A stretch of DNA of 64,000 bases from a bacterium. Its GTDB lineage: Bacteria > Desulfobacterota > Binatia > HRBIN30 > CADEER01. Each line of letters starts with the position of its first letter. Position 1 is the first letter of the stretch. Location of the stretch: the NCBI GenBank assembly GCA_030430165.1, contig JAUIGL010000012.1:6137-70136 (forward strand), in the 5' to 3' direction. Of the stretch, positions 1 to 28,110 are shown piece by piece. The notes beneath the pieces are model-generated. The model saw only the letters and a program-made list of their open reading frames with translations. It was not told the origin of the DNA and did no database searches. The position numbers and the translations under genes are program-made.

Positions 1-2107
<2,107 letters not shown>

Positions 2108-8889: not shown

Positions 8890-8972
8890 AGTTTCGTCGA
8901 GTCGTGCGGCTACTTCCGCGGCTGATCCGGGGCGCCGGTTCGCGGCCGGAGCGCGCCACTGGTGATTGAGCG

Positions 8973-9839: not shown

Positions 9840-9854
9840 GCGAGGGCGCAACTG

Positions 9855-10820
9855 GTGCGGCGCAACGGGACAACAGGGACGGCGGGTTTGTGGGCTCTGC
9901 TCGCGCTCGCCCTGACCGCGACGGCACCGGTGGCGGCCGACGACGAGCTGCCGCTGCGGGTGACGACCCGGGTCGAGCCCGAATCGGTGCGCATCGGTGT
10001 GCCGTTCCGCTACTTCGTGCGGGTCGAGACGCGCGGCGAGGCGGAGGTGGTGCTTCCGTTGCTGGTTGGTCAGATCGGCGAGTTCCTGATCCGCGACTAC
10101 GGCGAGACGGCGCAGCCGGGCGGCGATTCGGTCACCGAGCGCTGGTACGAGCTGGTGGGCTACACGGTCGGCGACCAGCTGGTGGAGGGCGGCGAGCTCG
10201 CCTACCGGGTTCCCGGAAGCGAGCTGCAGCCACTGGAGATTCCCGACGCCGTCATCACCGTCGAGAGCCTGCTCGACGATCAGGCGAATCCCGCCACCGT
10301 CGACGTCCGCGACATTAAACGTCCGGTCGGCGTGCCGCGCGACTACTCCGCCTGGTGGATCGTCGCTGGCGCGAGTCTCGCCGCTCTCGGTCTGTTGGTC
10401 GGCGTGCTGTGGTGGCTGCGCCGGCGCGAGGCGGTGGCGTCCGCTGTCGTCGAGCGCCCGGCGCACGAGATCGCCCTCGAGGCTCTCAATCGCCTGCGCC
10501 GCAGCCATCTGCTCGAAGACGGCCAGCAGCCGGAGTACTACGTGCGGCTGTCGGCGATCGTCCGCGAGTACGTCGAGCGGCGCTTCACCCTGCGGGCGCC
10601 GGAGATGACGACCCAGGAGTTCTTGCAGGCGGCGCAATCGAACCGCGACCTGCCGGGGCGCTATCGCAGCAGCCTGGGGGAGTTCCTCAGCGAGGCCGAC
10701 TTGGTCAAGTTCGCGCGGCACGTGCCCACCGTGCAGCAGGGCGAGCGCGCCTACGAGGCGGCGCGCGAGTTCGTCACCGAGACCTCGCGTTCTTCCGAGG
10801 AGAGCGATGCGGCTGCATGA
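9855..10820 (+). CDS. Signal-peptide/TM protein of the Bat-like operon (DUF4381-like?)
   Basis: It has an N-terminal signal (LWALLALALTATAPVAA) and one internal TM (WWIVAGASLAALGLLVGVLWWL), and sits between DUF58 and BatA-like genes. Family assignment is tentative. Confidence 0.5.
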   Translation: MRRNGTTGTAGLWALLALALTATAPVAADDELPLRVTTRVEPESVRIGVPFRYFVRVETRGEAEVVLPLLVGQIGEFLIRDYGETAQPGGDSVTERWYELVGYTVGDQLVEGGELAYRVPGSELQPLEIPDAVITVESLLDDQANPATVDVRDIKRPVGVPRDYSAWWIVAGASLAALGLLVGVLWWLRRREAVASAVVERPAHEIALEALNRLRRSHLLEDGQQPEYYVRLSAIVREYVERRFTLRAPEMTTQEFLQAAQSNRDLPGRYRSSLGEFLSEADLVKFARHVPTVQQGERAYEAAREFVTETSRSSEESDAAA

Positions 10821-11799
10821 CCCCTGGGCGCTGTTGCTGCTCGCGCTGGTGCCGCTGGTGTGGCGCCTCGGCCGATCGGCGACGCCGGCGCTGCGCTTCT
10901 CGTCGGTCGGCTTCTTCGCCGGCATCGACCCCGGTCGGCGGGCGCGATGGCGACGCTGGCTGCCGATCGCCCGCGCCGTGGCGTTCGCGCTGCTGGTAGT
11001 CGCGCTGGCGCGGCCGCAGATGGGCGACGAGCAGACCCGAGTGCGCGCCGAGGGGATCGACATCATGCTCGCCGTCGACCTGTCGAGCTCGATGCTCGCC
11101 GAAGATTTCACCAACGACGCCGGCGACCCTGCGAATCGCCTCGAGGCGGTCAAAGAGGTCGTGCAGTCGTTCGTCGACGGCAGGAGCGGCGATCGCATTG
11201 GACTGGTCCTGTTCGCGGCGCGACCCTATCTGCAGTCGCCGCTGACCCTCGACCACGGTTGGCTGTTGAACAACCTGTCGCGCGCCGAGGTCGGGCTGAT
11301 CGAGGACGGAACCGCCGTCGGATCGGCCCTGGCGACGGCGGTCAACGGCCTCGAGGGATCCGATTCGGAGAGCAAGGTGGTGATCCTGCTCACCGACGGC
11401 CAGAACAACGCCGGTCGCGTGTCGCCGGAGATGGCGGCCGAGGCGGCGGCGACGCTCGGCTACAAGGTCTACACCATCGGCGCCGGCACCAAGGGGGTCG
11501 CCCGCTATCCGCAGATCGATTTCTTCGGCAACAAGCGCTACGTGCCGATGCCGGTCGACATCGACGAGAAGACGCTGCGCGCGATCGCCGCGGAGACCGG
11601 CGGGCGTTACTTCCGGGCGACCGATACCGAGAGCCTGCGACACATCTACGCCGGGATCGATCAGTTGGAGAAGACCGAGCAGGAGGGCTTGCTCTACCTC
11701 GACTACCACGAGCTCTATCCGTGGCTGGCCCTGGCTGCCTTCGCCTTGCTGGCCGGCGAGGCGGTGCTCGCCGAAACCTGGCTGAGGGTGTTGCCGTGA
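10807..11799 (+). CDS. VWA domain membrane protein (BatA-like)
   Basis: The N-terminal TMs are followed by the MIDAS motif DIMLAVDLSSSM and a VILLTDGQNN VWA fold. It overlaps the previous gene by 14 nt. Confidence 0.8.
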   Translation: MRLHDPWALLLLALVPLVWRLGRSATPALRFSSVGFFAGIDPGRRARWRRWLPIARAVAFALLVVALARPQMGDEQTRVRAEGIDIMLAVDLSSSMLAEDFTNDAGDPANRLEAVKEVVQSFVDGRSGDRIGLVLFAARPYLQSPLTLDHGWLLNNLSRAEVGLIEDGTAVGSALATAVNGLEGSDSESKVVILLTDGQNNAGRVSPEMAAEAAATLGYKVYTIGAGTKGVARYPQIDFFGNKRYVPMPVDIDEKTLRAIAAETGGRYFRATDTESLRHIYAGIDQLEKTEQEGLLYLDYHELYPWLALAAFALLAGEAVLAETWLRVLP

Positions 11800-11815
11800 G
11801 CCGGGCGGGAGCGGT

Positions 11816-13843
11816 GTGATGCAGTGGCGTGAGCCCGACTTCCTATGGTTGAGCGGTTTGGTCGTATTGCTCGGCGCGGTGCTGGCGCTTGCCCTGCGCG
11901 GCCGGGTGCGCGCTCTCGAACGTTTCGTCGACGCCGATCTCGGCCGTCGTCTCGCGGTGGGCTCGAGTGCGGCGCGCCGCATCGCCTGCGTTGCGTTGCG
12001 GCTGGCTGCCCTGTTGCTGGTGGTGGTCGCGCTGGCCGGCCCGAAGTGGGGCTTTCACTGGGAAGAAGTGCGGCGCGAGGGGATCGATCTGCTGGTGGCG
12101 CTCGACACCTCGCGCAGCATGCTGGCGACCGACGTCAAGCCGAATCGACTGGAGCGGGCCAAGCTCGCCGTGCTCGACCTGCTGCCGCGCCTGCGCGGTG
12201 ATCGCATCGGGCTCGTCGCCTATGCCGGCACTGCGTTTCTCGAGGCGCCGCTGACCTTGGACTACGCCGCCTTCGCGCGCTCGCTGCGCGCGCTCCAGGT
12301 CGGCATCATCCCGCGCGGCGGAACCTCGCTGAGCCGCGCCATCGAAACCAGTCTCGAAGCGTTCGAAGCGCGCCAGGGCAAGTACGAAGCGCTGATTCTG
12401 ATCACCGACGGCGAGGATCACGAGGGCGACGCGCTCGACGCCGCAACGCTCGCCGCCGAGCGCGGGGTGAGGATCTACACGGTCGGCATCGGTACCCCGG
12501 AGGGCGAGCTGTTGCCGCTGCCCGGCGCGACCGCCGGCTACGTCAAGGATCGCAAGGGACAAGTCGTCAAGTCGCGACTGAACGAGGAACTGCTGCGCGA
12601 CATCGCGCTCGACACCGGCGGAGCGTACGTGCGTGGTCTCGGCCCGCAACTCGGTCTCGACGAGGTGTTCGACCAGCACATCGCCAAGATGGAGCGGCGC
12701 GAGGTCGACAGTGGGCTCGAGCGGCGCTTCGAGCATCGCTTTCAGCTGCCGCTGCTGCTGGCGTTGGTCCTGTTGCTGGTCGAGGCCCTGATCGGCGAGC
12801 GACCGGGGCGGGCGCGCGGCTGGTTGGCGAGGTTGAGCCGCAACCGCGCCGCGGCTTCCGCCTCGATCCTCTGGCTCGCCGTCGCGTTCGCCGAACCGGT
12901 ACCAGCCGGCCTGCTCGACTTCGAGGACCATCCCATCAACCAGGGCGTCGAAGCGTTCGAGCGGGGCGACTACGAGGCAGCGGTCGAAACCTTTGGCGAC
13001 GCTCTGGTGGAGTCGCCGGCCGATCCCCAGCTGCAGTTCGACCTCGGCGCCGCGCTGTACAAGCAGGGGCGCTACGAGGAGGCGATCGCGACGCTCGAGA
13101 AAGCGGCGACCGAGGGCGGCGAGAAATGGGCCGCGCCGGCCAACTACAACCTCGGCAACGCCTACTACCGCGCCGGCGCGGAGACCGAAGGCGAGCAACC
13201 ACAGCAGACACTCGAGCGCTGGGCGCAGGCGCTTTTGGCCTACCGGCGCGCGCTCGCCGTCGATCCGGCCGACGAAGATGCCCAGTTCAATCACGAGCTG
13301 GTGCAGAAGCGAATCGACGAGCTGCGCCAGCGTCTCGAGGACGAGCAGCAGGAAGAGCAGGAACAGGAACAACAGCCCGACGGCGACCAGCAGCAGGAGC
13401 AGGAGGAGCAGTCGGACGGCGAGCAGGAAGAGGGCGAAGAGCAGCAGGAGTCCGAGCAGGGCGAGCAGGAGCGACAGCAGGAGCAGGGTGAGCAGGAGCA
13501 GGGCGAGCAGCAGCAAGACGACTCGCAACAGCCCGACTCCGAGGCAGGAGAGGAGCAGCCACAGCCCGAGGAGTCCGAGGCCGGGGAGCAGGACGAGGAG
13601 GCGGCCGACGACGCTGCCGAGCAGCAGCCGCAAGACGAGCAGCCGGCCGACGAGCCGCAGCAGGAGGAGCAGCCGGCGGCGCAGGGCGGCGGCGAGGCGA
13701 CGGCGTCCGACGAAGAGCGAGCCGCGGAGGAGCAGGCCGCCCAGGCGGTGCTCGACACGGCGCGCGAGGAAGAGCTCGGTCCGCAGGACATCGAGCGCCG
13801 CACCGGCGTTGCCGGTGTCGGCGATCCGATGCAGGATTGGTAG
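11816..13843 (+). CDS. VWA + TPR fusion protein (BatB/BatC-like) with about 170-aa Glu/Gln-rich acidic C-terminal tail
   Basis: The MIDAS motif is DLLVALDTSRSM, followed by TPR-like repeats (YNLGNAYYRAG, YRRALAVDP) and an EQQEEQEQEQQ... low-complexity region. Confidence 0.75.
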   Translation: MMQWREPDFLWLSGLVVLLGAVLALALRGRVRALERFVDADLGRRLAVGSSAARRIACVALRLAALLLVVVALAGPKWGFHWEEVRREGIDLLVALDTSRSMLATDVKPNRLERAKLAVLDLLPRLRGDRIGLVAYAGTAFLEAPLTLDYAAFARSLRALQVGIIPRGGTSLSRAIETSLEAFEARQGKYEALILITDGEDHEGDALDAATLAAERGVRIYTVGIGTPEGELLPLPGATAGYVKDRKGQVVKSRLNEELLRDIALDTGGAYVRGLGPQLGLDEVFDQHIAKMERREVDSGLERRFEHRFQLPLLLALVLLLVEALIGERPGRARGWLARLSRNRAAASASILWLAVAFAEPVPAGLLDFEDHPINQGVEAFERGDYEAAVETFGDALVESPADPQLQFDLGAALYKQGRYEEAIATLEKAATEGGEKWAAPANYNLGNAYYRAGAETEGEQPQQTLERWAQALLAYRRALAVDPADEDAQFNHELVQKRIDELRQRLEDEQQEEQEQEQQPDGDQQQEQEEQSDGEQEEGEEQQESEQGEQERQQEQGEQEQGEQQQDDSQQPDSEAGEEQPQPEESEAGEQDEEAADDAAEQQPQDEQPADEPQQEEQPAAQGGGEATASDEERAAEEQAAQAVLDTAREEELGPQDIERRTGVAGVGDPMQDW

Positions 13844-13845
13844 TC

Positions 13846-16386
13846 ATGCCGAGAGCCCCGATTGCACCGCGACGGGCGCTCGTCGCGCTCATCGTTGCGC
13901 TGGCGCTGAGCGCGCCAGCGGTCGCGTCATCGCAGAGCATCAGCGCGACCGTCGACCGAACGCGTCTGGCGGTCGGCGAAGCGACGATTCTCTCGGTTCA
14001 GGTGATCGGTGCTCAGGGGGCGGCGGCACCGCAGGTGGCGATGGCGGACTGGGAAGTGCGCTATGCCGGGCCGTCGACCGAGGTTCGCTTCGAGAACGGC
14101 GTCACCACCAGCAGCGTCACCCATCGCTACCAATTGCTTGCGCAGAAAGCCGGGTCGTTCACCTTCGGCCCGTACACGGTCGAGGTCGACGGCAAGACCC
14201 TGAGCAGCCAACCGATTGCGATCGAGGTCGTGCCGCGCGGCAGCGAGCCGGTCCAGTCCGGGCGCCCGCAGCTGGTGCTCGACGCCCGCGTCGGCGACAC
14301 CGAGCCGTGGGTCGGCGAAAGAGTCCCGCTGACGATCCGCCTCTTGATCCCGTCGGGAACCCGCGTCGACAATCTGCAGTTTCCGCAAGTGCACGGCGAG
14401 CACGTGGTCGCCGGCGCGATGCCGCAGCCGGCCCAGCGCGACGAGCACATCAATGGGATGGCGTTTCGCGTGCTCTACTTCGAGACCCACCTGACGCCGC
14501 TCGTCGCCGGCGAAAGGGCGGTGACGGTTTCGATGGACCTCAGCGTGCTCGAGCAGGCCCGCCGCAATCGGCAGCGAGGTTTGTTCGGGATGCTGGGGGG
14601 ATTCTCACAGCGGCGACCCGTCGAGTTGCGCAGCGAGCCGTTGCTTCTTCGAGCCCGTGCACTGCCGGCCGAGGGGCGCCCGCCGGGTTTCTCCGGCGCA
14701 GTGGGCTCGTTCAACATGCAGGTGGCGGCCTCGCCGACCGAGCTCGCCGCCGGTGACCCGGTAACCGTGCGCGTGGTGGTTCGCGGTGCCGGCGATCTCA
14801 GCAAGCTGCAGCCGCCGCGCTACCAGGCGAGCGACGAGCTGCGCGCCTACGACCCGCTGCCACTCGCCGACCTCGGCGGAGATGCCAAGGGCATCGAGCA
14901 GGTGGTGATTCCGCAGCAGCCGGGTGTGGTCGAGCTGCCGGCTCTGCAGCTGTCCTTTTTCGATCCCGAAGCCGAGGCCTACCGCACCATCCGCCGGCGC
15001 CCGCGCCCGCTGCAGGTGGCAGAGTCGGCGACCGCCCAGGCGGCGGTGGTCGCCGGCGGCGAGCAGGGGCGCGCCGAGAAGGTGCAGGGCCCGCTCGGAC
15101 GCGACATCGTGTTCATCAAGCGCGCGCCGGGCTCCTGGTCGGAGGTCGGCCGCAGTTGGTGGGGCTCGTGGGCGCTGTGGTTGGTGCACCTGGCACCGGC
15201 GCTCGCCGTCGCCGGCTTGTGGTGGCGGTCGCGCCGGGCGGGCGCGCTCGCTGCCAATCCCAAGTTGCGCCGCTTTCGCGAGGCCGAGGCCAAGGCGCGG
15301 GCGGCGCTCGCCGGCCTGGATGCGAGCGACGGCGGCTTCGTCGACCGGTTGCACGACGCGATCGGCGAGTACCTCGGAGCCAAACTGGACCTCCCCCCTG
15401 GCGCGATCGAGGGCGAGAGAGTGGCGAGCGCCCTCGCCGAAGCCGGTTGCGCACACGACGTCTGCGAGCAGGCGCGCGCGTTCTTCGCCGATCTCGAGGC
15501 CCTGCGCTACGCCCCGGGCGGCGCTGACGATGCGGTACGGCGCGGGCTACTGGCGCGCGCCGAGACGATCGTCGCGGCGCTGGCGAAACGGCGCGACCTC
15601 GAGAGCGGGCTCGCCGCGGCGGCGAAGCTGGCGCTGGTTGCGGTGATCAGCCTGACGGCCGTCGGCCCGTCGCACGCCGACGTGGTCAGCGAGGCCGCCC
15701 CGGAAGCGGCGTTCTTCGCCGGCAACGAGGCCTACGCCGGCGGCGACTACGGACGGGCGGTGGAGCGCTACCGCGAGGCGCTCGCCCTCGGAGTCGAGAG
15801 CGGCGCGCTTCACTTCAATCTCGGCAACGCGCATTTCAAGCGTGGCGAAATGGCGCTTGCCGTAGCCAGCTATCTGCGTGCCCGGCGCTTGCTGCCGCGC
15901 GACCCCGACGTCGCCGCCAACCTCTCGTTCGCCGAAGAGTCGCTCGAGCTCCCGGCGGAGGCGGATCCATTGTGGCGGCGGGCGGTGTTTGCGCTCGCCT
16001 ACCGGGCCAGTGCCGTCGAGCTGGCGACTTTGTTGTCTGTGGCGTGGTGGAGTCTCTGCGCCGTTTGCGCGGCGATGCTGTTGCTGCCTGGGCGGCGCGA
16101 CGCGCTGCGCTGGCCGCTGGCGATCTCGGCGCTGCTGGCGCTGATCGCCTTCGCCAACTTCGCCTACCGCGGCCAGTCGCTCGAGCTGTGGCGGGACGCG
16201 GTGGTCGCCGCGGCGAACGACGTGGTGGTTCGCTTCGAGCCGGCCGCCGACGGTACCGAGCACTTCACGGCGCCGGTGGGCAGCCGGCTGACGGTACACG
16301 AGCGGCGCGAGGGATGGGCGCTGGTGTCGCGCCGCGACGGCCGGCGCGGCTGGTTGCGAGAAGACCAGATCGTTCGTCTGCGCTGA
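13846..16386 (+). CDS. BatD-like protein fused to C-terminal TPR and SH3-like (BatE-like) domain
   Basis: A signal peptide is followed by repeated beta-rich BatD-type domains, a TM region around residue 440, a TPR segment (FFAGNEAYAGGDYGRAVERYREAL) and a C-terminal SH3b-like block (GWALVSRRDGRRGWLREDQI). The ATG at 13846 overlaps the upstream stop. Confidence 0.7.
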   Translation: MPRAPIAPRRALVALIVALALSAPAVASSQSISATVDRTRLAVGEATILSVQVIGAQGAAAPQVAMADWEVRYAGPSTEVRFENGVTTSSVTHRYQLLAQKAGSFTFGPYTVEVDGKTLSSQPIAIEVVPRGSEPVQSGRPQLVLDARVGDTEPWVGERVPLTIRLLIPSGTRVDNLQFPQVHGEHVVAGAMPQPAQRDEHINGMAFRVLYFETHLTPLVAGERAVTVSMDLSVLEQARRNRQRGLFGMLGGFSQRRPVELRSEPLLLRARALPAEGRPPGFSGAVGSFNMQVAASPTELAAGDPVTVRVVVRGAGDLSKLQPPRYQASDELRAYDPLPLADLGGDAKGIEQVVIPQQPGVVELPALQLSFFDPEAEAYRTIRRRPRPLQVAESATAQAAVVAGGEQGRAEKVQGPLGRDIVFIKRAPGSWSEVGRSWWGSWALWLVHLAPALAVAGLWWRSRRAGALAANPKLRRFREAEAKARAALAGLDASDGGFVDRLHDAIGEYLGAKLDLPPGAIEGERVASALAEAGCAHDVCEQARAFFADLEALRYAPGGADDAVRRGLLARAETIVAALAKRRDLESGLAAAAKLALVAVISLTAVGPSHADVVSEAAPEAAFFAGNEAYAGGDYGRAVERYREALALGVESGALHFNLGNAHFKRGEMALAVASYLRARRLLPRDPDVAANLSFAEESLELPAEADPLWRRAVFALAYRASAVELATLLSVAWWSLCAVCAAMLLLPGRRDALRWPLAISALLALIAFANFAYRGQSLELWRDAVVAAANDVVVRFEPAADGTEHFTAPVGSRLTVHERREGWALVSRRDGRRGWLREDQIVRLR

Positions 16387-19057: not shown

Positions 19058-21448
19058 ATGTCGAAGCCGATCAAAGCCGTCTTTACTCCTCTCTTGGCTG
19101 CTGCAATCTGTGTCGTCTCCGCGGCTGCGGTGGCAGAGGGCAAGGACAAGGTCAAACCGCCTGTCGCCACCTTCGAGGATCGCGAAGTGTTGCCGGTCAA
19201 GCCGCCGCGGCTGGCGCCGATCACGACGCTGGATGCCCGCGACATGGACAGTCCGGCGGTGTTCGAGGTCGCTGCCCCCAAGGGGGCGCCCAACGTGATC
19301 ATCATCCTGGTCGACGATCTCGGATTTGGTGGCACCAGCCACTTCGGCGGCCCGGTGGCGACGCCGAACTTCGACAAGCTGGCGGCGCAGGGCATATCGT
19401 ACAACCAGTTCCACTCGACGGCGCTGTGCTCGCCGACGCGGCAGGCGCTCAAGACCGGGCGCAATCATCACTCGGCGGCGATGGGCAAGATAACCGAAGT
19501 CGCGACCTCGTTTCCCGGTTACACCGGCATGCTGCCCGACGACGTCGCCTCGATCGGCAAGATGCTGAGCTACAATGGCTTCAGCACCAGTGCGTTCGGC
19601 AAGTGGCACGAGACCGCGGTGTGGGAGATCAGCCCGTCGGGCCCGATGACCCGGTGGCCGAACCACCAGGGCTTCGACGAGTTCTACGGCTTCATGGGGG
19701 GCGAGACCAATCAGTGGACGCCGACCATCTACCACAACCAGAATCGCGTCGAGACGCCGGACGACGCCGACTACCACTTCCTCACCGACATGACGACGAA
19801 GGCGATCGAGTGGATCGAGTTCCAGCAGGCGCTCACGCCCGAAAAGCCCTTCTTCGTCTACTTTGCACCGGGCGCGACGCACGCGCCGCACCACGTGCCG
19901 CAGTCGTACATCGACAAACAGAAAGGCCGCTTCGACGCCGGCTGGGACGCCGTTCGCGAACAGATCTACCAGCGCCAACTCGAGAGCGGTGTGATCCCGA
20001 AAGGCACCAAGCTGGCCGCCAAGCCGGACTGGATCAAGGACTGGAAGGACCTGAGCGCGAAGGAGCAGAAGCTGTTCGCGCGCCAGGCCGAAGTATTCGC
20101 GGCCTACGTCGACATGACCGATACCGAGATCGGTCGCCTCATCCAGGCGGTCGAAGACATCGGTGAAATCGACAACACGCTGATCTTCTACATCGCTGGC
20201 GACAACGGGACCAGCGCCGAAGGGGTCGCCAACGGTCTCTACAACGAGATGACCTACTTCAACGCCGAGCCCAAGGGGTCCGACGTCGACTTCATGCTGC
20301 AGTACTACGATCGCTGGGGCGGACCGGAAACCTACCCGCACATGGCGGCGGGCTGGGCGGTTGCGCTCGATTCTCCGTTCGGTTGGACCAAGCAGGTGGC
20401 CTCCGATTTCGGCGGCACGCGCCAGGGCCTGGCGGTGCACTGGCCCGATGGCATCAAAGCAAAGGGCGAGCTGCGCTCGCAGTGGCATCACGTCATCGAC
20501 GTCGTGCCGACGATCCTGGAAGCGGCCGGCCTACCCGAACCGCGGGTGGTGGACGGCATTCCGCAGCGCCCCATCGAAGGGGTCAGCATGGTCTACAGCT
20601 TCGACGACGCCGACGCGGCGGACCGCCACACGATCCAGTACTTCGAGATGTTCGGCAACCGGGCTCTCTACCACGATGGCTGGATGGCGCGGACGATCCA
20701 CTCGACTCCTTGGGGAGGGCCGAAGAACAAGTTGGAAGACGACACCTGGGAGCTCTACAACGTCGCCGAAGATTTCAGTCTGGCGACGGACGTGGCGCGC
20801 GACCACCCGGAGAAGCTGGCCGAGTTGCAGAGCCGGTTCCTCGCCGAAGCGGTCAAGTACAACGTCCTGCCGCTCGACGATCGACTGATCGAGCTCGCCA
20901 ACCCGCAGATCGCGGGACGGCCCGATCTGATGTTCGGTCGGACGACGCTGACGCTCAGGGAAGGCATGGCCGGCCTGCTCGAGAACGATTTCATCAATAC
21001 CAAGAACGCGTCGTACACGATCGAGGCCGAGGTCGAGACCGGCGGCTCGGCCGCCAACGGCGTGATCCTGGCGCAGGGGGGCCGCTTCGGCGGCTACAGC
21101 CTGTATCTGAAGGAGGGTGTTCCGACCTTCGTCTACAACTACCTGGGGCTCGACAAGACCAAGATCGCGGGCAGCGACCCGCTACCGAGCGGCAAGTCCA
21201 CCGTGAAGATGGACTTTGCCTACGAGGGCGGCGTCGGCGGTGGAGGCACCGTGACTCTGAGCGTCGACGGCAAGACCGTGGGCTCGGGCAAGGTCGCCAA
21301 GACCGAACCCAACGTCTACTCCGCCGACGAGACCGCCGGCGTCGGTATCGACCAGGAAACCCCCGTGTCGGACGACTACACACGCGAGAGCAGCAAGTTC
21401 ACCGGCCGGATCCACAAGGTGACGGTCAATACGAAACCATCCAGCTAG
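19058..21448 (+). CDS. Arylsulfatase (formylglycine-dependent sulfatase) with signal peptide and long C-terminal extension
   Basis: The CSPTRQALKTGR active-site C-x-P-x-R motif is followed by GKWH. There is an N-terminal signal peptide and an RBS GAAGAGG before the ATG at 19058. Confidence 0.85.
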   Translation: MSKPIKAVFTPLLAAAICVVSAAAVAEGKDKVKPPVATFEDREVLPVKPPRLAPITTLDARDMDSPAVFEVAAPKGAPNVIIILVDDLGFGGTSHFGGPVATPNFDKLAAQGISYNQFHSTALCSPTRQALKTGRNHHSAAMGKITEVATSFPGYTGMLPDDVASIGKMLSYNGFSTSAFGKWHETAVWEISPSGPMTRWPNHQGFDEFYGFMGGETNQWTPTIYHNQNRVETPDDADYHFLTDMTTKAIEWIEFQQALTPEKPFFVYFAPGATHAPHHVPQSYIDKQKGRFDAGWDAVREQIYQRQLESGVIPKGTKLAAKPDWIKDWKDLSAKEQKLFARQAEVFAAYVDMTDTEIGRLIQAVEDIGEIDNTLIFYIAGDNGTSAEGVANGLYNEMTYFNAEPKGSDVDFMLQYYDRWGGPETYPHMAAGWAVALDSPFGWTKQVASDFGGTRQGLAVHWPDGIKAKGELRSQWHHVIDVVPTILEAAGLPEPRVVDGIPQRPIEGVSMVYSFDDADAADRHTIQYFEMFGNRALYHDGWMARTIHSTPWGGPKNKLEDDTWELYNVAEDFSLATDVARDHPEKLAELQSRFLAEAVKYNVLPLDDRLIELANPQIAGRPDLMFGRTTLTLREGMAGLLENDFINTKNASYTIEAEVETGGSAANGVILAQGGRFGGYSLYLKEGVPTFVYNYLGLDKTKIAGSDPLPSGKSTVKMDFAYEGGVGGGGTVTLSVDGKTVGSGKVAKTEPNVYSADETAGVGIDQETPVSDDYTRESSKFTGRIHKVTVNTKPSS

Positions 21449-21478
21449 AGCTCACGCACCGGTTGCGGGACGAGGTGA

Positions 21479-22666
21479 TCACCCGAACGAGGCTTGCTCC
21501 TGCTCCAGACAACCTTCGATGGCGGTCAGCACGGCGCGGATGAGGTCGTTGATCGAGACCCCGCCGCCGTCGCTGTCGGCGTGCGGGCACTCCTCGGGCA
21601 GGGCGTCGCCGAGGGCGATGCGCACGGCGACGATGAGCTCGCTGATGCTCACCTGACCGTCTTCGTCGCAATCGCCAGGGCAGTCGACGAGTACGATTGC
21701 CGCCGTCGGCGACACGGTCGAGGTCGGAGTCGCCGTTTCGCCAGGGGGCGTCGGCGAGGACGACGGTGTCACCGTTTCGGTTGCCGCCAGGGTTGCGGTT
21801 GGTTCCGCCCGCTCGGTGCGGGCTTCGGTGGCGGTGGGAGACGGCGTGTCGGAGGGAGTCAGTGACGGCGTATCGGTTGCGGTGTAGGTGCTGGTTGCGG
21901 ATCTCGTAAAGGTCGCGGTCGGGGAATCCGTGCGGGTCGCCGTGAAGGTTGCGGTCGGGCGCGTCGGAGTATGCGTTTGGGTCGGTCGGCGCGTGCGCGT
22001 GTCGGTGCGCGTCGGCGTGTGCGGCCGGGTACGCGTGCGCGTGCGGGTCGCAGTTGGGGTCAGCGTGTCCTTGCGAGTGTAGGTCTTGGTGAAGGTCGGG
22101 GTCCGCGTCGACGTTGGCCGCAACCGGATGGTCGGGGTGAAGGTGAAGGTCGGGCGTCGGATCAGTGTGTTGGTCGGTGTCGCGCTTCGCGTCCTGGTCG
22201 GTGTCCGTGTCCTGGTGCGGGTCGAGGTCCGGGTGCGGGTATGGGTAGGGGTCGAAGTGGGCGGGGGGTCCGCGCAGAACCCTTGCTCACACACCTCGGT
22301 GCGCGGACAGTCGAGGTCGGTGTCGCACGGCTGGGCGGTCAGCGCCGGGTCGCAGTCGCCGTTGCCGTCGCAGGTCCCGGGAGCGCCGAACAAGAAGCAG
22401 AGACTGCCGCGTGGTCGTGGTGCGAAGAAGCATCCACCGGCGTTCTCCGAGCAGCTGGCCTGGTAGCACGGGCCAGGCGCTGTGCAGGTGACCGGCGGGT
22501 TCGAGCAGAAGCCGGTGCAGATGTCCAAAGTGCACTTCTTGCCGTCGTCGCACTGCGACGGGCTGGTGCAGATTTGCGCCGCCGCCGGGCCGGGCCGGGC
22601 TACGATCCCGGCCGCCGCCAGTACCACCACGCCTAGCCACGCCACCATTTGCCTGCCGATGCTCAT
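21479..22666 (-). CDS. Secreted protein: N-terminal Cys-rich domain, central Thr/Pro/Arg-rich repeat linker, C-terminal dockerin-like Ca-binding repeats
   Basis: A signal peptide (MSIGRQMVAWLGVVVLAAAGIVA) is followed by about 25 Cys in the first 150 aa, then (T-R/T-P-T)n over about 150 aa, then DCDEDGQVSISELI / DSDGGGVSINDLI pairs. An RBS GGGAGGTG lies upstream. Confidence 0.6.
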   Translation of the reverse strand: MSIGRQMVAWLGVVVLAAAGIVARPGPAAAQICTSPSQCDDGKKCTLDICTGFCSNPPVTCTAPGPCYQASCSENAGGCFFAPRPRGSLCFLFGAPGTCDGNGDCDPALTAQPCDTDLDCPRTEVCEQGFCADPPPTSTPTHTRTRTSTRTRTRTPTRTRSATPTNTLIRRPTFTFTPTIRLRPTSTRTPTFTKTYTRKDTLTPTATRTRTRTRPHTPTRTDTRTRRPTQTHTPTRPTATFTATRTDSPTATFTRSATSTYTATDTPSLTPSDTPSPTATEARTERAEPTATLAATETVTPSSSPTPPGETATPTSTVSPTAAIVLVDCPGDCDEDGQVSISELIVAVRIALGDALPEECPHADSDGGGVSINDLIRAVLTAIEGCLEQEQASFG

Positions 22667-22811
22667 CGTCACCTCCCGGTTGCCGAATGCGGAGCGCGCG
22701 GCGCTCCTCAACCAACTAGGGGCTACTTTCGCGGGCGCGATGCGCCCGCGAAGCGCGCAACGCCGGTGGCGGCCTCGTCAACCTAGGCAACGCCGGGGAT
22801 CGATCGAGGAG

Positions 22812-25800
22812 TCAGTCGACCGACCAATCCGTCGGTTTTTCAGGCCTATAGGAGCAAAATGTGCCGGTGTGGATTGCATTTGCGAGGTGCCTGGAGAGTG
22901 CCTCGTGGGCCGAGCCGATGCGGCCGACGGCGGCGCGGATGTTCTTGGCCACAGCCTTGCGGATGTTCTCGCGAAGCCGATTCCGCCCGTGGGCGGCGAT
23001 TTCCGGGGAATAGGCGGCGATCAACTCCTCGCTCAACCGGTCGAGCTCTTCTCGGGCACGGCTCGCGCGCCCGACGTCGTTGTTCTCCTCGGCCTCTGCC
23101 AGCTGCTCACGGAGGTCCTTGACTCGCTTGCGGTACTCCGCGCGCGCCTTTGCGTCCGGATTCGGCTCGGTGAGCCCGCTCTCGTGCCGTCCGAGCCCGG
23201 CGCCGGCGAGATCGGCGACGTGAAACTCGCGGCCGGGCTCGCGCAGCAGCGTTCGGACGTAGTGGAGGCCCTTGAGATCCTTCACCCGGATGGTTCGCCC
23301 TGCGTAGGTGATCGTCCAGAAGTCGCCATCCCGGCGGAAGACGTGGGTGTCGCCGGTTGCGGGGGCATCGGCCGGGGGACGCCGCTTCCCGCCGACGCGT
23401 GTCAGGAGACGCTCGCCACGCTCCTGCCACGGACCCATGTCGAGATCGGCAAGCCCGGCGAGGGCGGCGCGCAGGAGACCCTCTGCGCGGTTCCGCTCAC
23501 CGTCGAGCCGCAGGAGCATGTCGGCGTGGTCGAGGCGCGCGCGTGCCATTAGAGGCCGTGCTCCCATGCGCGAGTAGGTTTCCTCGGCCGCGGCAAAGTG
23601 CTCGTCGGCTTCGCACGGGGCGCCCAGCACGGTGGCGAGGAGTCCGAGATAGTGACTGACGGTCCCGCTGCAGGCGGCAAACCAGGATCCGATGACGACC
23701 AGGTCGCGGTGCGGCAGCAACATCTCGTAGAGCTGTCGCGATCTCTCTGTGTCGTCGAGAAACCAGCAGACGTGGGCGGCGTCGGTGAGACCGGTGAGCC
23801 AGTTCGAGTCGCGCGGGTAGTCCTCGAAGTCGGCGGCGGCAACCGCGTCGAAGACGCGCCGGCACTCGTCGAGCCGGCCCATGTGCCCGTAGGCGAGTGC
23901 GAGCGGGCCGCGCGCCGCCGGGATGTGCGCCATGCTGCGGGCGAACTCGACGATCGCCGGCTCCATTTCGTGGAGTCTGCCTTGCTCCAGGCGGGTGCGG
24001 TAGAGCTGGATGCTGAGCATCAGCGGAGCGTTCAGGATCTGCGCCGCCTGGCCGGCCTGGCATGCCTCCAGCGCCTGCGCCTCGGCATCGGCGAGCGCCC
24101 CTTCGAGGAGCAGGAACATGGCGCGAAAGACTGCGACGCGCCACCGGTTGAACGGGTAGCGCTGTTGCTCGGCGCAGGATTCCTGGCGGTCGACGTGCAC
24201 CCGCGCCAGCTCCGCCTCGCCGCGCTGCAGCGAGTTGATTGCGCACCAGTTGTGTCCGTTGACGAGCAGGCTCGGGTCGTCGGTCTGCTCGGCGAGGGTC
24301 AGGATCCGCTGCGCCATCTGCTCGCGCTCGCCGATGTGGTCCGGTCCGTAGAGAACCATGATCCGCTCGCCGAGCACGCGCCCGAGGGTCGCCTGGTCGC
24401 AAACCGCTTCCGCGATCCGCACCGCCTCGGCGCTGCGTTTCAACACCAGCGTCTGGTTCTGCGCGTAGTACTGCGGCAAGAGGCTTCGTGTGAGCAGCTC
24501 GGCACGCAACGGATGTGCGCCTTCGCCGAGAGCTGCCAGCGCCTCCTCGACCAGCTGGGCTTTGTCGGAATCGGCGCCGACGCCGATGTTCCAGAGGCCG
24601 GCCATGCCGAGCGCGGCGCGCGCCAACAACTCGGCATCGCCCACCGACCTGGCAATCGCCGCGGCTTCGGCAAACGCCTCGCGTCCGCCGATTTCGTAGG
24701 CTACCAGGGCCTGGGCTCGGCCGAGGGCGAGCAGCAGCACGGCCCGCGTCCGTTGGCGTTCGCCATCGTCGCGTTGCGGGTCGATAGCGAGAACGCGCAG
24801 TGCCGCGGCGTACTGCGCCGCGGCTTCCTCGTAGGCATGCTGGCGCATGTAGCTGTCGCCGGCTCGGTTCGCGTACTCGATCGCCTTGTCGCCGTCGCCG
24901 AGGGAGGCGGCGCCGACGTAGTGGTGCGCCAGCTCACCGACCGCGGTATCGGCACGCTCGCCGAGCCACTGCTCCAGCGCTCGTGCGACCGTTTGGTGAA
25001 CCCGCGCCCGCTCGCTCCCTGTGACCTCCCGGTCGAGGACGTCGCGAACCAGTGGATGGCAGAACCGGTACCTGCCGACCTCGCCGGCTGGTTCGATCAC
25101 TTCGGCGCGGCAAGCGTCGTCGAGCAGGTCGGCGGGTGTGTGTCCGGCAGCGTGCGCCGACAGTGCCTGCCAGATCGCGTCGAGCAAGCGTTCGTCGAGC
25201 TCGTGTCCGATCACTGCGGCGAAGCGCAGCAGCTCGACCGCCGGCGCCGCCAGCCCGTCCAGACGGCGCCTCACCGCGTGGCGAACCCCGGCGGCCAGCG
25301 GCAGCGCGGCGACGGCGTCGGAGCTCGCGCCGGGACGCTGGACGAGCAGGCGTGACACCTCGCTCACGAAGAGCGCGTTGCCGGCAGTCTTTTGATGCAC
25401 GCTGTTCACCAGCTCGCGGCCGACGTCGCCGCCGAGTACGTTTGCGAGAAACTCGGCGACGGCGTCGCGGCTCAAGCCGCCGAGCTCGATCAGCAACCCC
25501 TGGCGCTCGATGTCGCCGAGCGCATCGGCGAGCTCGCGATCCCGGCGAACCTCGACCGGGCGATAGGTGGCGACCAGTACGATCGCAGTGTCGCGAAGCA
25601 CGGGTGCCAGATGGCGCAGTACGAGCAGAGATGTGCGGTCCGCCCAATGGAGGTCGTCGAGCAAGAGCAGGAGAGGGCGTCGCTCCGCCGCGTTGCGCAG
25701 GAACGCAGCGACGTGGTCGAAAGCCCGGAAACGAGCCTCCAGTCCTTGGAGCGCCGGCAGCCTCGGCAGCGGTCCGCTGCGCTCCAGGATGCTGGGGGCG

Positions 25801-26219
25801 AGCGCCGCGACATCGGCGGCGCCGCGCCCGAGGCAGGCGCGGAGATCGTCGGCGGGGAGCCGCTGCGCGAGAGCGCGAATGATCTCGATCCACGGCCAGA
25901 ACGCGGGAGCGCCCTCGCTTTCGCGGCAGCGCCCCCAGTACACGTCGAAATCAGACGCCTCGCCGGCGATCTCGGAAGCGACTCTGGTCTTGCCGGCCCC
26001 CGCATCGCCGACCACGAGAGTCAGGCTGCCTCTTCCCGCTCGCGCCGAGTCGACGGCGGCACGCAACTGGCCGATCTCTGCGGTCCGACCTACGAAGACC
26101 GCCGCGGGGAACGAGGGTGTCTGCTTGCCAGGGGAGTCCATGGACGACCAGGCCACCACATTAAGGCTGCCCAACGCTCGCTGACAAGATCCGCGCCGGG
26201 TCCGAGCGCCTGGCGGCAT
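22812..26219 (-). CDS. STAND-type P-loop NTPase (AAA_16-like) with TPR/helical sensor region and uncharacterised 200-aa C-terminal domain
   Basis: Walker A is LVVGDAGAGKT and Walker B is LLLLDDLHWAD, followed by about 700 aa of TPR-like helices. No LuxR HTH is recognised at the C-terminus. An alternative start is MDSPGK at 26142. Confidence 0.7.
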   Translation of the reverse strand: MPPGARTRRGSCQRALGSLNVVAWSSMDSPGKQTPSFPAAVFVGRTAEIGQLRAAVDSARAGRGSLTLVVGDAGAGKTRVASEIAGEASDFDVYWGRCRESEGAPAFWPWIEIIRALAQRLPADDLRACLGRGAADVAALAPSILERSGPLPRLPALQGLEARFRAFDHVAAFLRNAAERRPLLLLLDDLHWADRTSLLVLRHLAPVLRDTAIVLVATYRPVEVRRDRELADALGDIERQGLLIELGGLSRDAVAEFLANVLGGDVGRELVNSVHQKTAGNALFVSEVSRLLVQRPGASSDAVAALPLAAGVRHAVRRRLDGLAAPAVELLRFAAVIGHELDERLLDAIWQALSAHAAGHTPADLLDDACRAEVIEPAGEVGRYRFCHPLVRDVLDREVTGSERARVHQTVARALEQWLGERADTAVGELAHHYVGAASLGDGDKAIEYANRAGDSYMRQHAYEEAAAQYAAALRVLAIDPQRDDGERQRTRAVLLLALGRAQALVAYEIGGREAFAEAAAIARSVGDAELLARAALGMAGLWNIGVGADSDKAQLVEEALAALGEGAHPLRAELLTRSLLPQYYAQNQTLVLKRSAEAVRIAEAVCDQATLGRVLGERIMVLYGPDHIGEREQMAQRILTLAEQTDDPSLLVNGHNWCAINSLQRGEAELARVHVDRQESCAEQQRYPFNRWRVAVFRAMFLLLEGALADAEAQALEACQAGQAAQILNAPLMLSIQLYRTRLEQGRLHEMEPAIVEFARSMAHIPAARGPLALAYGHMGRLDECRRVFDAVAAADFEDYPRDSNWLTGLTDAAHVCWFLDDTERSRQLYEMLLPHRDLVVIGSWFAACSGTVSHYLGLLATVLGAPCEADEHFAAAEETYSRMGARPLMARARLDHADMLLRLDGERNRAEGLLRAALAGLADLDMGPWQERGERLLTRVGGKRRPPADAPATGDTHVFRRDGDFWTITYAGRTIRVKDLKGLHYVRTLLREPGREFHVADLAGAGLGRHESGLTEPNPDAKARAEYRKRVKDLREQLAEAEENNDVGRASRAREELDRLSEELIAAYSPEIAAHGRNRLRENIRKAVAKNIRAAVGRIGSAHEALSRHLANAIHTGTFCSYRPEKPTDWSVD

Positions 26220-26274
26220 TGGACCCGGGAAACGGCGCGGGTTATGAAGGTCCGCTCATCTCGAGCCCAGGAGG

Positions 26275-28110
26275 TTGCCAGCAGTGTCAGAATCCCGCGT
26301 CAAGATCGAAGCCGACTTTACCGTCGCCGCGCAGCTCGAAGCGCGCGCGTCTCACCCCGATCTCGAGAACAAGCCGGTGCTGGTGCAGCACCAGCGCACT
26401 TGGACCTACAAGGACTACCGTAATCACTGTGTCCGCATGAGTCGCTTCCTGCTCGGTCGGCTGGGCGCGATCGACGATGCGCGGCCGGGTCACGTGGCGA
26501 TGATGCTGGAGAACCACCTCGAGCTGATGGCGCTGTTCGGCGGATGCTCGTACGGCGGGCTGACGCTCTTCGGCATCAATACCGGGCTGCGCGGCGAGGT
26601 GCTGGCCGGCGTGCTCAATCAGTCGCGCGCTCGCCTCCTGGTGGTCGATGAGAAGCTGTTTCCGGAGGTGGAGAAGGTAGCGGGGCAGCTGCAGAACATC
26701 GCGGCGGAGAACATCCTCGTGCTGCCGACCCAGGGTGGATCGGTCGAGGCTTCCGCCGACCTGCGCCAGTGTCTGGAGTCGGAAGTAGGGCCCGCCGACT
26801 CTAGTCTCGATGCGCCCTCGGTGGGCACCAGCATGGAGACCAACCTGATGGTGATCTACACCTCGGGGACCACCGGGCTGCCGAAGGGGATCAACAACAA
26901 CAACTTCAAGCTGTGCATGATCGGCGCCGCCGTGTCGGAGGGGATGGACGTTCGCCACGACGACCGCGGCTACGGTTGCATGCCGTTGTTCCACTCGAAT
27001 GCCCTCTTCGTCGGCTTCATGCCGGCGTTCTGGGCTGGCGGCAGCATGGCGATTCGCGAACGCTTCAGCGCCAGCCACTTCGTGCCGGACGTGCTCGAGC
27101 ACGGGGTCACCATGTGGAACTACGTCGGCGAGCCGGTGCACTACGTGCTCTCCGCCCTCGAGAAGCAGTACCAGGGCGACCGCGATCGCATCATCGCCGA
27201 AGTCGCGCGCAACCCGCGCAATCATCTGCGCTTTGCCGTCGGCAACGGCGCGTCGCCGCCGGATATCGACCGATTCACCGAGTGGCTCGGGCTCGAGGAC
27301 ATGTACGAGCTCTACGGCTCGACCGAGGCGGCGATCAGCACCTTTCGCAAGAAGGGAGACCCGCGCGGCACGGTGGGCCAGATCAACGACGACAACGTCA
27401 AGATCCTCGACGTCGACGGCCGCGAGTGTCCGCCGGCACGCCTCGGCGACAGCGGCGAGCTGCTCAACTACGAAGACTGCGTCGGCGAGATCTGCCGGGT
27501 TGCGGCGGACACTTCGCTGTTCCAGGGCTACTTCGACAACGAAGCGGCCAACTCGCAGAAGTACCGCGACGGCGTCTACCACTCCGGCGATCTCGGCCAC
27601 ATCCTCGAGCAGGACGGCAAGCGCTTTCTCTTCTTCGACGGACGCACCGACGACTGGATCCGCAAGGACGGCGAGAACTTCTCGGCAGGGCAGGTCGGTC
27701 GGCTGATCAGCGAGCACGACGACATCGCGCTCGCGGTCGCGTATGGCGTCCCCTGCGCGGTGTCGGACGAGCTGGTGATGACGGCGATCAAGTTGCGCGA
27801 AGGCGCGTCGTTCGACCCCAAGGCCTTCTTCGATTGGTGCGAGGCGCAGGTCAGCGACGCCAGCATGGACCGCAAGTGGTTCCCCGACTTCGTCCGTCTT
27901 GTCGACGACTTCGAGTTTACCGAGACGCAGAAGGTGCTGGTGCGCAACCTCAAGAAAGTGCATTTCGATCTGCGCCGACTCGGCGCCGGGCAACCGATCT
28001 TCTGGCGGCGCCGCGGCGACGACACCTTTCATCGCTTTGGCAGCGACGACTTCGCAGCCTTGCAGGAGGAGTTCGCCAAGGCCGAACGGGCCGAGTTGCT
28101 CGACCGCTGA
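26275..28110 (+). CDS. Long-chain fatty acid-CoA ligase / AMP-dependent synthetase
   Basis: The AMP-binding motif is YTSGTTGLPKG, with a later YHSGDLG...DGRTDDWIRKDGENF core. Confidence 0.85.
   Translation: MPAVSESRVKIEADFTVAAQLEARASHPDLENKPVLVQHQRTWTYKDYRNHCVRMSRFLLGRLGAIDDARPGHVAMMLENHLELMALFGGCSYGGLTLFGINTGLRGEVLAGVLNQSRARLLVVDEKLFPEVEKVAGQLQNIAAENILVLPTQGGSVEASADLRQCLESEVGPADSSLDAPSVGTSMETNLMVIYTSGTTGLPKGINNNNFKLCMIGAAVSEGMDVRHDDRGYGCMPLFHSNALFVGFMPAFWAGGSMAIRERFSASHFVPDVLEHGVTMWNYVGEPVHYVLSALEKQYQGDRDRIIAEVARNPRNHLRFAVGNGASPPDIDRFTEWLGLEDMYELYGSTEAAISTFRKKGDPRGTVGQINDDNVKILDVDGRECPPARLGDSGELLNYEDCVGEICRVAADTSLFQGYFDNEAANSQKYRDGVYHSGDLGHILEQDGKRFLFFDGRTDDWIRKDGENFSAGQVGRLISEHDDIALAVAYGVPCAVSDELVMTAIKLREGASFDPKAFFDWCEAQVSDASMDRKWFPDFVRLVDDFEFTETQKVLVRNLKKVHFDLRRLGAGQPIFWRRRGDDTFHRFGSDDFAALQEEFAKAERAELLDR

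Follow-up and report, generated by a model that had tools for sequence, protein, structure and literature searches.

The window analyzed here, a stretch of 64,000 nucleotides, carries on its minus strand a reading frame that the original prediction described as a solitary STAND NTPase of 1135 aa. The frame itself is confirmed, with full-length homologues numbering in the hundreds and an NCBI protein, P0051, that is 100% identical to its product and 1109 aa long; its GC3 of 0.83 is typical for the genes of the window. Translation probably starts at M27 (window position 26141), since both the NCBI model and an alignment of 69 homologues (A5) begin there. The neighboring genes in the window encode a molybdopterin oxidoreductase, a sulfatase, an AMP-binding enzyme, an amine oxidase, a glyoxalase, and a glucokinase. 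The AMP-binding gene lies upstream and is divergent to the STAND gene, as had been proposed, whereas the tail-to-tail placement and the monocistronic character proposed along with it do not hold, since a gene on the same strand follows 145 bp downstream, an arrangement conserved in three other related loci. Table 1 gives the features of the locus.

Table 1. Features of the STAND locus and of the region downstream of it (window positions)
Feature	Position	Strand	Remarks
Maximal ORF of the STAND protein	22812..26219	-	1135 codons
Probable true CDS of the STAND gene	22812-26141	-	start M27, 1109 aa
P-loop nucleotide-binding domain (Pfam AAA_16)	25590..26096	-	ORF residues 42-210; E 1.6e-26, above cut-off
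Walker A, GDAGAGKT	25986-26009	-	within P-loop domain; ORF residues 71-78
Walker B, LLLLDDLHWAD	25638-25670	-	within P-loop domain; ORF residues 184-194
Helical and winged-helix domains of the NOD	25029..25469	-	ORF residues ~251-397
TPR-like alpha-solenoid	23394..25019	-	ORF residues ~401-942; AF2 helical repeats 375-916
C-terminal module, first half	23196..23345	-	three-stranded sheet (FRRDGDFWTITYAGRTIRV), alpha1 KGLHYVRTLL, alpha2 EFHVADL; predicted OmpR-type winged helix
Coiled-coil hairpin	23010..23153	-	two antiparallel helices, ORF residues ~1023-1070; tip motif EAE..ND..R
C-terminal module, second half	22818..22985	-	long basic helix, helix RHL, wing TGTFCSYRPEKPTDW
Intergenic region	22690-22800		palindrome GGGCGCATCGCGCCC and flanking GAAAGTAGCCCCTAGTTGGTTGAGGA
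Conserved intergenic element, 45 nt	22705..22749	-	palindrome GGGCGC-N3-GCGCCC, then CGAAAGTAGCCCCTAGTTGGTTGAGGA; ~35 nt upstream of the partner ATG
Downstream partner gene	21479-22666	-	SD GGGAGG, ATG at 22666

The assignment to the STAND class, based in the original prediction on the P-loop motifs and the repeats, is upheld by the AF2 model of the full-length protein (pLDDT 87.3) and by Foldseek matches to STAND proteins. Both Walker motifs are found where they had been placed, inside a Pfam AAA_16 match, and the model shows a nucleotide-binding domain (NBD) of beta-alpha P-loop fold, a helical domain (HD), a winged-helix domain (WHD), a solenoid, a disordered linker, and a C-terminal module of 180 aa (ORF residues ~955-1135). 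The P-loop with Walker A and B, the NBD-HD-WHD series with its conserved His, and the C-terminal repeat arm are features of the MalT-like (AAA_16) clade of STAND NTPases. In the 1109-aa numbering, the secondary-structure elements of the helical and winged-helix domains span residues 225 to 371 (H225-295, H299-E360); TAGNALF is a variant of the GNP motif of the family, and the His of YRFCHPL (RFxH) is invariant in alignment A5, where it is H362. The repeats are shorter than the roughly 700 aa first estimated, since the first ~370 aa of the model belong to the three NOD domains and the paired helices extend over ~540 aa. Pfam TPR_2 matches the solenoid weakly, and Foldseek relates it to TPR proteins; we presume that it serves as a sensor or autoinhibitory arm. 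When the core was compared with the PDB by Foldseek, the best match was the STAND-TPR protein PH0952 (6mfv; E 5e-11), the second was MalT (8bob_C), and CED-4 was also among the matches. In NCBIfam, the NOD-TPR core came closest to TIGR03903 (residues 41-702, E 1.2e-36), which comprises kinase/cyclase-NOD-TPR fusions, although the score of 126 lies far below the cut-off of 705.75 and the protein studied here has neither kinase nor cyclase. Judged by a query coverage of 76 to 82%, both PH0952-type and TIGR03903 proteins differ from it in being without the C-terminal module.

The sequence quoted for the C-terminal region in the original prediction (VFRRDGDFW...) was found to begin at residue 960, and the distinct module announced there exists, with 180 rather than 200 aa; the coiled coil, however, does not follow the module but interrupts it midway as an inserted hairpin. 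In the AF2 model of the module (pLDDT 88.6), an N-terminal sheet, a three-helix core with a putative recognition helix, and a C-terminal wing are recognized, as in the OmpR/PhoB fold, and the predicted order of N-terminal sheet, alpha1, short strand, alpha2, basic recognition helix, and C-terminal wing is that of OmpR/PhoB domains (Trans_reg_C, PF00486). Instead of the short transactivation loop that these domains have between alpha2 and alpha3, the predicted module carries a hairpin of ~50 residues, or ~70 with its flanking linkers, whose helices cover residues 69-91 and 95-116 in module numbering. It differs from them further in an extra helix, RHL, before the wing, in the lack of significant sequence similarity, and in family-specific invariant residues (W12, G28, P39, H44, C166, Y168, P170, and W176). 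Among 286 sequences, T162, G163, C166, Y168, P170, and W176 are each conserved in at least 97%, and the basic helix (family consensus ERARxxVTxxIR), the putative recognition helix, contains R131, R129, and R121, conserved in 100%, 97%, and 97%, respectively. Just before this helix, the family has a near-invariant motif, GLGGRxR, which has been lost in the subclade of the protein studied here.

Structural comparison, the check that had been suggested for this part of the protein, points to an OmpR-like winged helix: OmpR-family domains account for about two-thirds of the 50 top Foldseek matches of the module, at E-values that are not significant (at least 0.33), and the nearest structural neighbors are all bona fide DNA-binding domains aligned over their full length. 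In hhalign, a profile of the module with the hairpin deleted was colinear with OmpR/PhoB domains over 95 to 100 columns (P 0.003 to 0.006), at a low probability (4 to 6%). Sequence searches returned nothing comparable. The C-terminus had no match when the whole protein was searched with Pfam, NCBIfam, and PADLOC; the Pfam search detected neither PF00486 nor PF03704 and, in agreement with the original prediction, no LuxR/GerE or other HTH at E ≤ 1; Pfam found no Trans_reg_C at E ≤ 10 in 32 hairpin-deleted modules, only scattered noise; and PDB sequence searches with the whole protein and with the profile of the hairpin-deleted module gave no OmpR-family or other meaningful match. From its modeled structure, the module is predicted to be a disguised OmpR-type winged-helix DNA-binding domain. 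Of what had been named as the marks of an ordinary MalT-like regulator, a C-terminal DNA-binding domain is predicted from structure, but it is not a clear LuxR or SARP domain, since all sequence searches fail, and no biosynthetic cluster lies next to the gene.

No second copy of the module or of the NOD occurs elsewhere in the window. Beyond it, the module defines a very large family that is unnamed in any database, with 17,839 clusters at 50% identity at E ≤ 1e-3 and 7,440 at E ≤ 1e-30, and proteins that bear it occur in Actinomycetota, Bacteroidota, Alphaproteobacteria, Desulfobacterota, and Binatia; a plasmid gene of Streptomyces sp. NBC_00564 (OG256_RS02145) encodes one member. Of 286 proteins, 275 have the module at their end, where it stands behind AAA_16-TPR, nSTAND1-TPR, TPR, cyclase, FHA, GAF, REC-cyclase, or receiver domains, and this placement behind sensor and signaling domains is the pattern of output domains. 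We found no description of the architecture or of the module in the literature.

Since the tail is predicted to be an OmpR-type DNA-binding domain, a gene regulator is the most likely identity of the protein, rather than an antiviral sensor. We deem the STAND gene product to be probably a MalT/AfsR-like one-component, ATP-dependent transcription regulator with an OmpR-like C-terminal output, of which we infer the DNA binding, the ATP dependence, and the target; for the DNA binding, the conserved basic helix and the conserved palindrome close by are indirect evidence. As modeled, the output domain is most likely a previously unannotated variant of the OmpR/PhoB winged helix in which a hairpin of ~50 residues takes the place of the transactivation loop. 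With MalT and the large ATP-binding LuxR-family (LAL) regulators the protein shares, in the same order, an AAA_16-type STAND NOD, a TPR/SUPR-like sensor, and a C-terminal DNA-binding output, the last predicted here, whereas their output is a LuxR/GerE HTH, none of which was detected, and that of the protein studied would combine an OmpR-like winged helix with an inserted coiled coil. In AfsR and the large SARPs the order is SARP, NOD, and TPR (PMC10936776). Their OmpR-type winged helix is N-terminal and followed by a BTAD, while the protein studied here starts with the NBD and has no BTAD, and its predicted winged helix is C-terminal, undetectable with PF00486 and PF03704, and interrupted by the hairpin. 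Two paralogous NOD-TPR cores (P0145 and P0154) have instead a canonical Trans_reg_C at the N-terminus, with or without a BTAD.

The product of the same-strand partner gene downstream is a secreted protein in which a signal peptide and a Cys-rich, Dicty_CTDC-like N-terminal domain are followed by a long linker rich in Thr, Pro, and Arg and by a C-terminal pair that is dockerin/EF-hand-like. Pfam detected Dicty_CTDC in its orthologues. In L024 and L025, the gene immediately 3' of the STAND orthologue is 54 to 60% identical to the partner, and the arrangement is repeated in L030. The intergenic element, present as a single copy within the window, is a candidate operator or promoter, or else a terminator plus leader. 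As to conservation of the neighborhood, whose examination had been recommended, element and partner gene follow the STAND gene in four of six related loci examined and are missing from L026 and L027, two of the closest orthologous loci. We found neither the element nor consistent shared 9-mers upstream of the regulator that would speak for autoregulation, a scan for sigma-70 promoters and terminators detected nothing promoter-like and no terminator of relevance, and an Rfam search of positions 21000 to 27000 returned sub-threshold noise and no family for the element. RNAalifold showed no real covariation in it, so RNA structure is unsupported. Homologue searches with the partner protein were dominated by PT-linker/dockerin-like secreted proteins and are therefore uninformative on linkage.

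It could well be, though we would not call it probable, that the element combines the STAND gene's intrinsic terminator with the partner's own promoter or leader, that the partner is unrelated and kept by synteny, and that the targets of the regulator lie elsewhere. The palindrome would form a GC-rich hairpin ~65 nt past the stop codon, the partner is a member of a large group of secreted proteins, specific to the lineage, that share its PT linker and dockerin-like tail, and the absence of the partner from L026 and L027 fits as well. However, no T-run follows the palindrome, and the stem together with the next 28 nt is conserved in sequence, without compensatory changes, across the four element-bearing loci, although identity between their STAND proteins, where these are full-length, is only ~55% and their other neighbors all differ. 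This reading is compatible with a regulator and bears on its target only, not on the nature of the protein.

An unlikely alternative regarding the protein itself is that the module is winged-helix-like but no sequence-specific DNA binder, and acts as a protein-protein or signaling adaptor that makes the STAND protein a signaling hub, for example, by dimerizing via the coiled-coil hairpin, docking on RNA polymerase or a sigma factor, or regulating a nucleotide cyclase. In sequence the module resembles none of the DNA-binding families, and the hairpin has highly conserved residues of its own (D66, Y73, R76, D92, R95, and E102 among the 286 sequences), which suggest a specific partner. Class III cyclase domains are also recurrent fusion partners of the module, in several arrangements (REC-cyclase-module, cyclase-TPR-module, AAA_16-TPR-module-cyclase, and module-cyclase-TPR), and the frequency of these fusions could indicate a role other than DNA binding. 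Cyclase-NOD-TPR-HTH architectures are, however, known in LuxR-type regulators of mycobacteria, so fusion to a cyclase does not count against DNA binding. The adaptor function is further opposed by the full-length match to structural neighbors that all bind DNA and by the position of the most conserved arginines, which lie in the equivalent of the recognition helix.

The Avs/NLR-like autonomous sensor/effector of the original prediction, in which the TPR arm would recognize a phage protein and the module would be the effector, e.g., by binding or occluding DNA upon oligomerization, we deem highly improbable: antiphage Avs and bacterial NLR-related proteins do count among the STAND NTPases with repeat sensors (10.1101/2022.07.19.500537), Foldseek matches the NOD, though more weakly, to Avs5 and plant NLRs, and neighborhoods differ between orthologues, but the suggested search with defense profiles (PADLOC) gave only mad8 (E 0.007) over the P-loop (residues 60-90), the winged-helix module is the sole part outside NOD and TPR, with no nuclease, protease, SIR2, TIR, pore, or membrane effector, the neighbors are metabolic and those of the orthologous loci metabolic or regulatory, without defense-island or mobile-element context, and FHA, GAF, receiver, cyclase, and plain TPR proteins likewise end in this module, a pattern of signaling and not of immunity.

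For the transcription regulator that we favor, MalT and AfsR suggest how it might operate. A ligand or partner protein would engage the TPR arm, which would relieve autoinhibition and permit ADP-to-ATP exchange, and the NOD would then oligomerize and gather several C-terminal winged helices on repeated DNA sites. The hairpin may hold DNA-binding domains together in pairs or else touch RNA polymerase. In this lineage, the neighboring gene for the secreted Cys-rich protein is a plausible target, since it is preceded by the 45-nt element, which contains a perfect palindrome and is conserved along with the two genes.

PhoB and OmpR contact RNA polymerase at exactly the position that the hairpin occupies in the model, and the module family may therefore activate transcription differently. 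Taken as a whole, the following proposal is tentative and rather doubtful: the module would be a large, undescribed class of bacterial transcription-factor output, an OmpR-like winged helix in which a rigid coiled-coil hairpin, with its conserved acidic/Asn-Asp tip, replaces the RNA-polymerase loop and provides a new polymerase contact or a domain pairing unlike those of the characterized OmpR, PhoB, and SARP proteins, and the STAND regulator would control, via GGGCGC-N3-GCGCCC, the adjacent secreted Cys-rich, dockerin-tailed protein.

For the window itself the outcome is modest, a probable regulator rather than a defense system. For the family it reaches further, since the last 180 residues match nothing and thousands of large signaling proteins consequently carry only labels such as "AAA family ATPase", the PGAP name of one module-bearing protein, or "TPR repeat protein". 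The module family merits a domain model in Pfam or InterPro. If the tail is a DNA-binding domain, such proteins become one-component transcription regulators, and their STAND-TPR, FHA, GAF, receiver, and cyclase sensors could be tied to regulons.

The STAND gene is a real gene: its reading frame is uninterrupted, its composition (GC3 0.83, GC2 0.49) is usual for genes of the window (65 to 70% GC), hundreds of relatives of 1100 to 1135 aa match its product at 35 to 57% identity, covering 96 to 98%, and one 1109-aa NCBI protein shows 100% identity to it. Since both this protein and an alignment of 69 homologues begin at M27 (window 26141), M27 is the likely start. This start would leave a 133-bp divergent intergenic region (window 26142-26274) before the AMP-binding enzyme gene (26275-28110, +), in which neither a sigma-70-like promoter nor a copy of the intergenic block found downstream of the STAND gene was detected.

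The Walker A (GDAGAGKT, residues 71-78) and Walker B (LLLLDDLHWAD, residues 184-194) motifs and the C-terminal stretch VFRRDGDFWTITYAGRTIRVKDLKGLHYVRTLLREPGREFHVADL (from residue 960) quoted in the original prediction are all present. Pfam reports AAA_16 at residues 42-210 (E 1.6e-26), a weak TPR_2 match and, as originally remarked, neither LuxR/GerE nor any other HTH, while the sole NCBIfam match, to TIGR03903 (TOMM kinase/cyclase fusion), is partial (residues 41-702) and far sub-threshold. In a full-length AlphaFold2 model (69 sequences, mean pLDDT 87.3), a P-loop domain, a helical domain and a winged-helix domain (together the NOD) precede a paired-helix arm, which is nearer 540 aa than the 700 aa first proposed. 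The best PDB matches in Foldseek are the STAND-TPR protein 6mfv (E 5e-11), MalT (8bob_C), CED-4 and the archaeal ATPases PAB2304 and SSO1545, with Avs5 and plant NLRs further down, and the family shows no variation at the His of RFxH, a motif of the winged-helix domain. The layout, these matches and the invariant His confirm a STAND NTPase with a TPR sensor, which every testable feature assigns to the AAA_16/MalT-like kind. The helical domain carries TAGNALF (window ~25360-25380, minus; ORF residues ~280-286) against the family consensus TEGNPLF, and the window protein has Ala in place of the Pro of the STAND 'GxP'-type motif.

Coordinates of the STAND gene, its predicted domains, the C-terminal module, the partner gene and the conserved block (L024, L025 and L030 are related loci)
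Feature	Position	Strand	Remarks
STAND ORF	window 22812-26219	minus	uninterrupted; 1135 codons
P-loop alpha/beta domain	up to ~220		1109-aa numbering; AlphaFold2
Helical domain	225-295		1109-aa numbering; AlphaFold2
Winged-helix domain, small	299-371		1109-aa numbering; AlphaFold2
Paired helices	375-916		~540 residues; 1109-aa numbering; AlphaFold2
Linker, disordered	919-930		1109-aa numbering; AlphaFold2
C-terminal module	933-1108		1109-aa numbering; AlphaFold2
Three beta-strands	5-10, 13-18, 21-26		module numbering; AlphaFold2
Helix	29-39		module numbering; AlphaFold2
Short strand, then helix	47-54 (helix)		module numbering; AlphaFold2
Linker	after helix 47-54		low confidence; AlphaFold2
Two long antiparallel helices	69-91, 95-116		module numbering; AlphaFold2
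Long helix	125-150		module numbering; AlphaFold2
Helix	152-161		module numbering; AlphaFold2
Two-stranded hairpin	167-170, 178-180		module numbering; AlphaFold2
Partner ORF	window 21479-22666	minus	same strand as STAND gene, 145 bp downstream; SD GGGAGG, ATG at 22666
Partner gene	L024 13612-14739		
Partner gene	L025 13513-14610		
Partner gene	L030 654-1736	minus	
Block	window 22705-22749	minus	
Block	L024 ~13497-13545		
Block	L025 ~13433-13480		
Block	L030 ~1770-1819	minus	

We read the C-terminal module as a very divergent OmpR-type winged helix, in which a predicted helical hairpin of ~50 residues (~70 with flanking linkers) has been inserted after alpha2 and before the recognition helix. 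An AlphaFold2 model of the module was built on 46 sequences (mean pLDDT 88.6, core 95-98), and its elements reappear in the full-length model, built from a different alignment. No Foldseek match to the module is significant (best E-value 0.33; the method handles large insertions poorly), yet about two-thirds of the top 50 are OmpR-family domains. HMM searches with the module gave no matches. In a profile-profile alignment, the hairpin-deleted module aligned colinearly with seven OmpR-family domains (five entered by hand, one from protein P0145 and one from locus L021) across 95-100 columns and in the register expected, though with weak statistics (P 0.003-0.006, probability 4-6%): KGLxYLAxLL falls on TPxEFxLLxxL, PGREFHVxDL on hPxrVxSRexL, ERARxxVTxxIRxAL on DRTVDVHIRRLRKAL and TGxFCSY on GxGYRF. 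Sequence-level support for this predicted fold is weak. In PhoB/OmpR, the position between alpha2 and the recognition helix is held by the 'transactivation loop', which contacts sigma-70 region 4 or alpha-CTD, whereas the module would have the hairpin instead. The recognition-helix equivalent has the family's most conserved basic residues (R119 92%, R121 97%, R129 97%, R131 100%, K/R139 93%), and D66, Y73, R76, D92, R95 and E102 are near-invariant within the hairpin. In the subclade of the window and L030, R129 is Asn, and GLGGRxR, 87-97% conserved in the wider family just before the basic helix, is replaced by SPEIAAH or MPPAAHA (in the window at ~22860-22880, minus; ORF residues ~1069-1075).

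The last 190 residues alone matched ~50 proteins (E down to 1e-46), and neither in these nor in the STAND protein does Pfam place a domain over the module. In an exhaustive search of 1.84 billion 50%-identity representatives, a profile of 46 module sequences matched 7,440 proteins at E<=1e-30 and 17,839 at E<=1e-3, the latter count being possibly inflated because the profile took in some upstream TPR columns. The module lies <=15 residues from the C-terminus in 275 of 286 sequences (N-terminal in four), beside an AAA_16- or nSTAND1-type NTPase with TPR, TPR alone, a class III nucleotide cyclase, FHA, GAF, or a receiver with cyclase; it also occurs free-standing (~180 aa, e.g., P0009). Fusions to the cyclase recur (L007 6717-8561; L015 6075-8513; L018 5145-9197, where the module is internal; proteins P0222, P0248 and P0023) in the orders REC-cyclase-module, cyclase-TPR-module, AAA_16-TPR-module-cyclase and module-cyclase-TPR. 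Among the genomes with the module are Acidimicrobiia, Thermoleophilia, Micromonosporaceae and Streptomyces, as well as several Bacteroidota, Chelativorans, Dichotomicrobium, Desulfobacula and Binataceae; a Streptomyces plasmid protein with the module is named merely 'AAA family ATPase' by PGAP.

The STAND gene had been considered solitary, but a same-strand partner ORF, which also escaped the GC3 filter, was overlooked. Its product comprises a signal peptide, a Cys-rich N-terminal domain, a long low-complexity Thr/Pro/Arg linker of TRTPT type and a dockerin/EF-hand-like C-terminal pair, and its orthologues match the Pfam Dicty_CTDC repeat. At L024 and L025, a gene 54-60% identical to it lies immediately 3' of the STAND orthologue, the remaining neighbours all differing. 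The intergenic region of the gene pair contains a block of ~45 nt, GGGCGC-N3-GCGCCC then C(G/C)AAAGTAGCCCCTAGTnGGTTGAGGA (downstream part also written CGAAAGTAGCCCCTAGTnGGTTGAGGA), kept almost base for base between loci whose STAND proteins are ~55% identical. A scan of a metagenome collection found the block in exactly one further place, L030, again between a module-bearing STAND C-terminus and a Cys-rich/PT-rich/dockerin-like gene. Its position (ending ~35 nt 5' of the partner ATG), single copy in the window and conservation make it a candidate operator or promoter of the partner gene, itself a candidate target of the regulator. Alternatively, it may combine a terminator hairpin with a promoter belonging to the partner itself. 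At the close orthologues L026 and L027, block and partner are both absent within the flanks fetched, so that the linkage is limited to part of the subclade. No Rfam family matches the block, and it lacks compensatory changes. The window also has two exact copies of a 10-bp direct repeat, CCGGCGTTGC (window 22787-22796 and 22757-22766, minus; 30 bp apart), in the stretch from the STAND stop codon to the palindrome; the other three loci do not share this repeat, which may be a chance occurrence. The partner's PT-rich linker and dockerin-like tail recur in numerous secreted enzymes, among them M23 peptidases, matrixins and VCBS proteins (P0315, P0316, P0325, P0329, P0363, P0366 and P0406). The MAGs that encode these enzymes carry the label Deltaproteobacteria or Candidatus Binatia, a hint both of the lineage of the window and of an anchoring tag specific to that lineage. 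Elsewhere in the window, a BatD-TPR-SH3 protein gene (13837-16386, +) ends a same-strand run (7903-16386) which looks like a Bat/aerotolerance-type operon unrelated to the STAND gene.

An antiphage Avs/NLR-like role, also raised originally, finds a PADLOC match at the P-loop level only (E 0.007), no nuclease, protease, SIR2, TIR or membrane effector in the STAND protein by Pfam, and metabolic or regulatory surroundings (in the window, molybdopterin oxidoreductase, sulfatase, AMP-binding enzyme, amine oxidase, glyoxalase and glucokinase; unrelated, mostly metabolic or regulatory genes at five orthologous or related loci). Together with the module's partner domains, which are classic bacterial signalling inputs, and the NOD-TPR core paralogues P0145 and P0154, which bear a canonical N-terminal Trans_reg_C with or without BTAD as in AfsR (further paralogues bear kinase and cyclase), this makes a MalT/AfsR-like one-component regulator the favoured reading. 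The window protein would share with MalT/LAL regulators the NOD, the repeat sensor and a putative C-terminal DNA-binding domain, but lacks their LuxR HTH; with AfsR it would share an OmpR-type winged helix, NOD and TPR, but the predicted winged helix is at the opposite end, without BTAD, and fails the Trans_reg_C profile, which places the protein outside both groups. From family knowledge of MalT and AfsR (for AfsR, PMC10936776), we infer a nucleotide switch and DNA binding: the sensor arm would regulate how the NOD exchanges nucleotide and oligomerises, and oligomerisation would cluster the DNA-binding domains. Full-text literature searches found no description of the module; the output domain is the new element, and neither Pfam (models up to 2025) nor NCBIfam 20.0 annotates this very large family.
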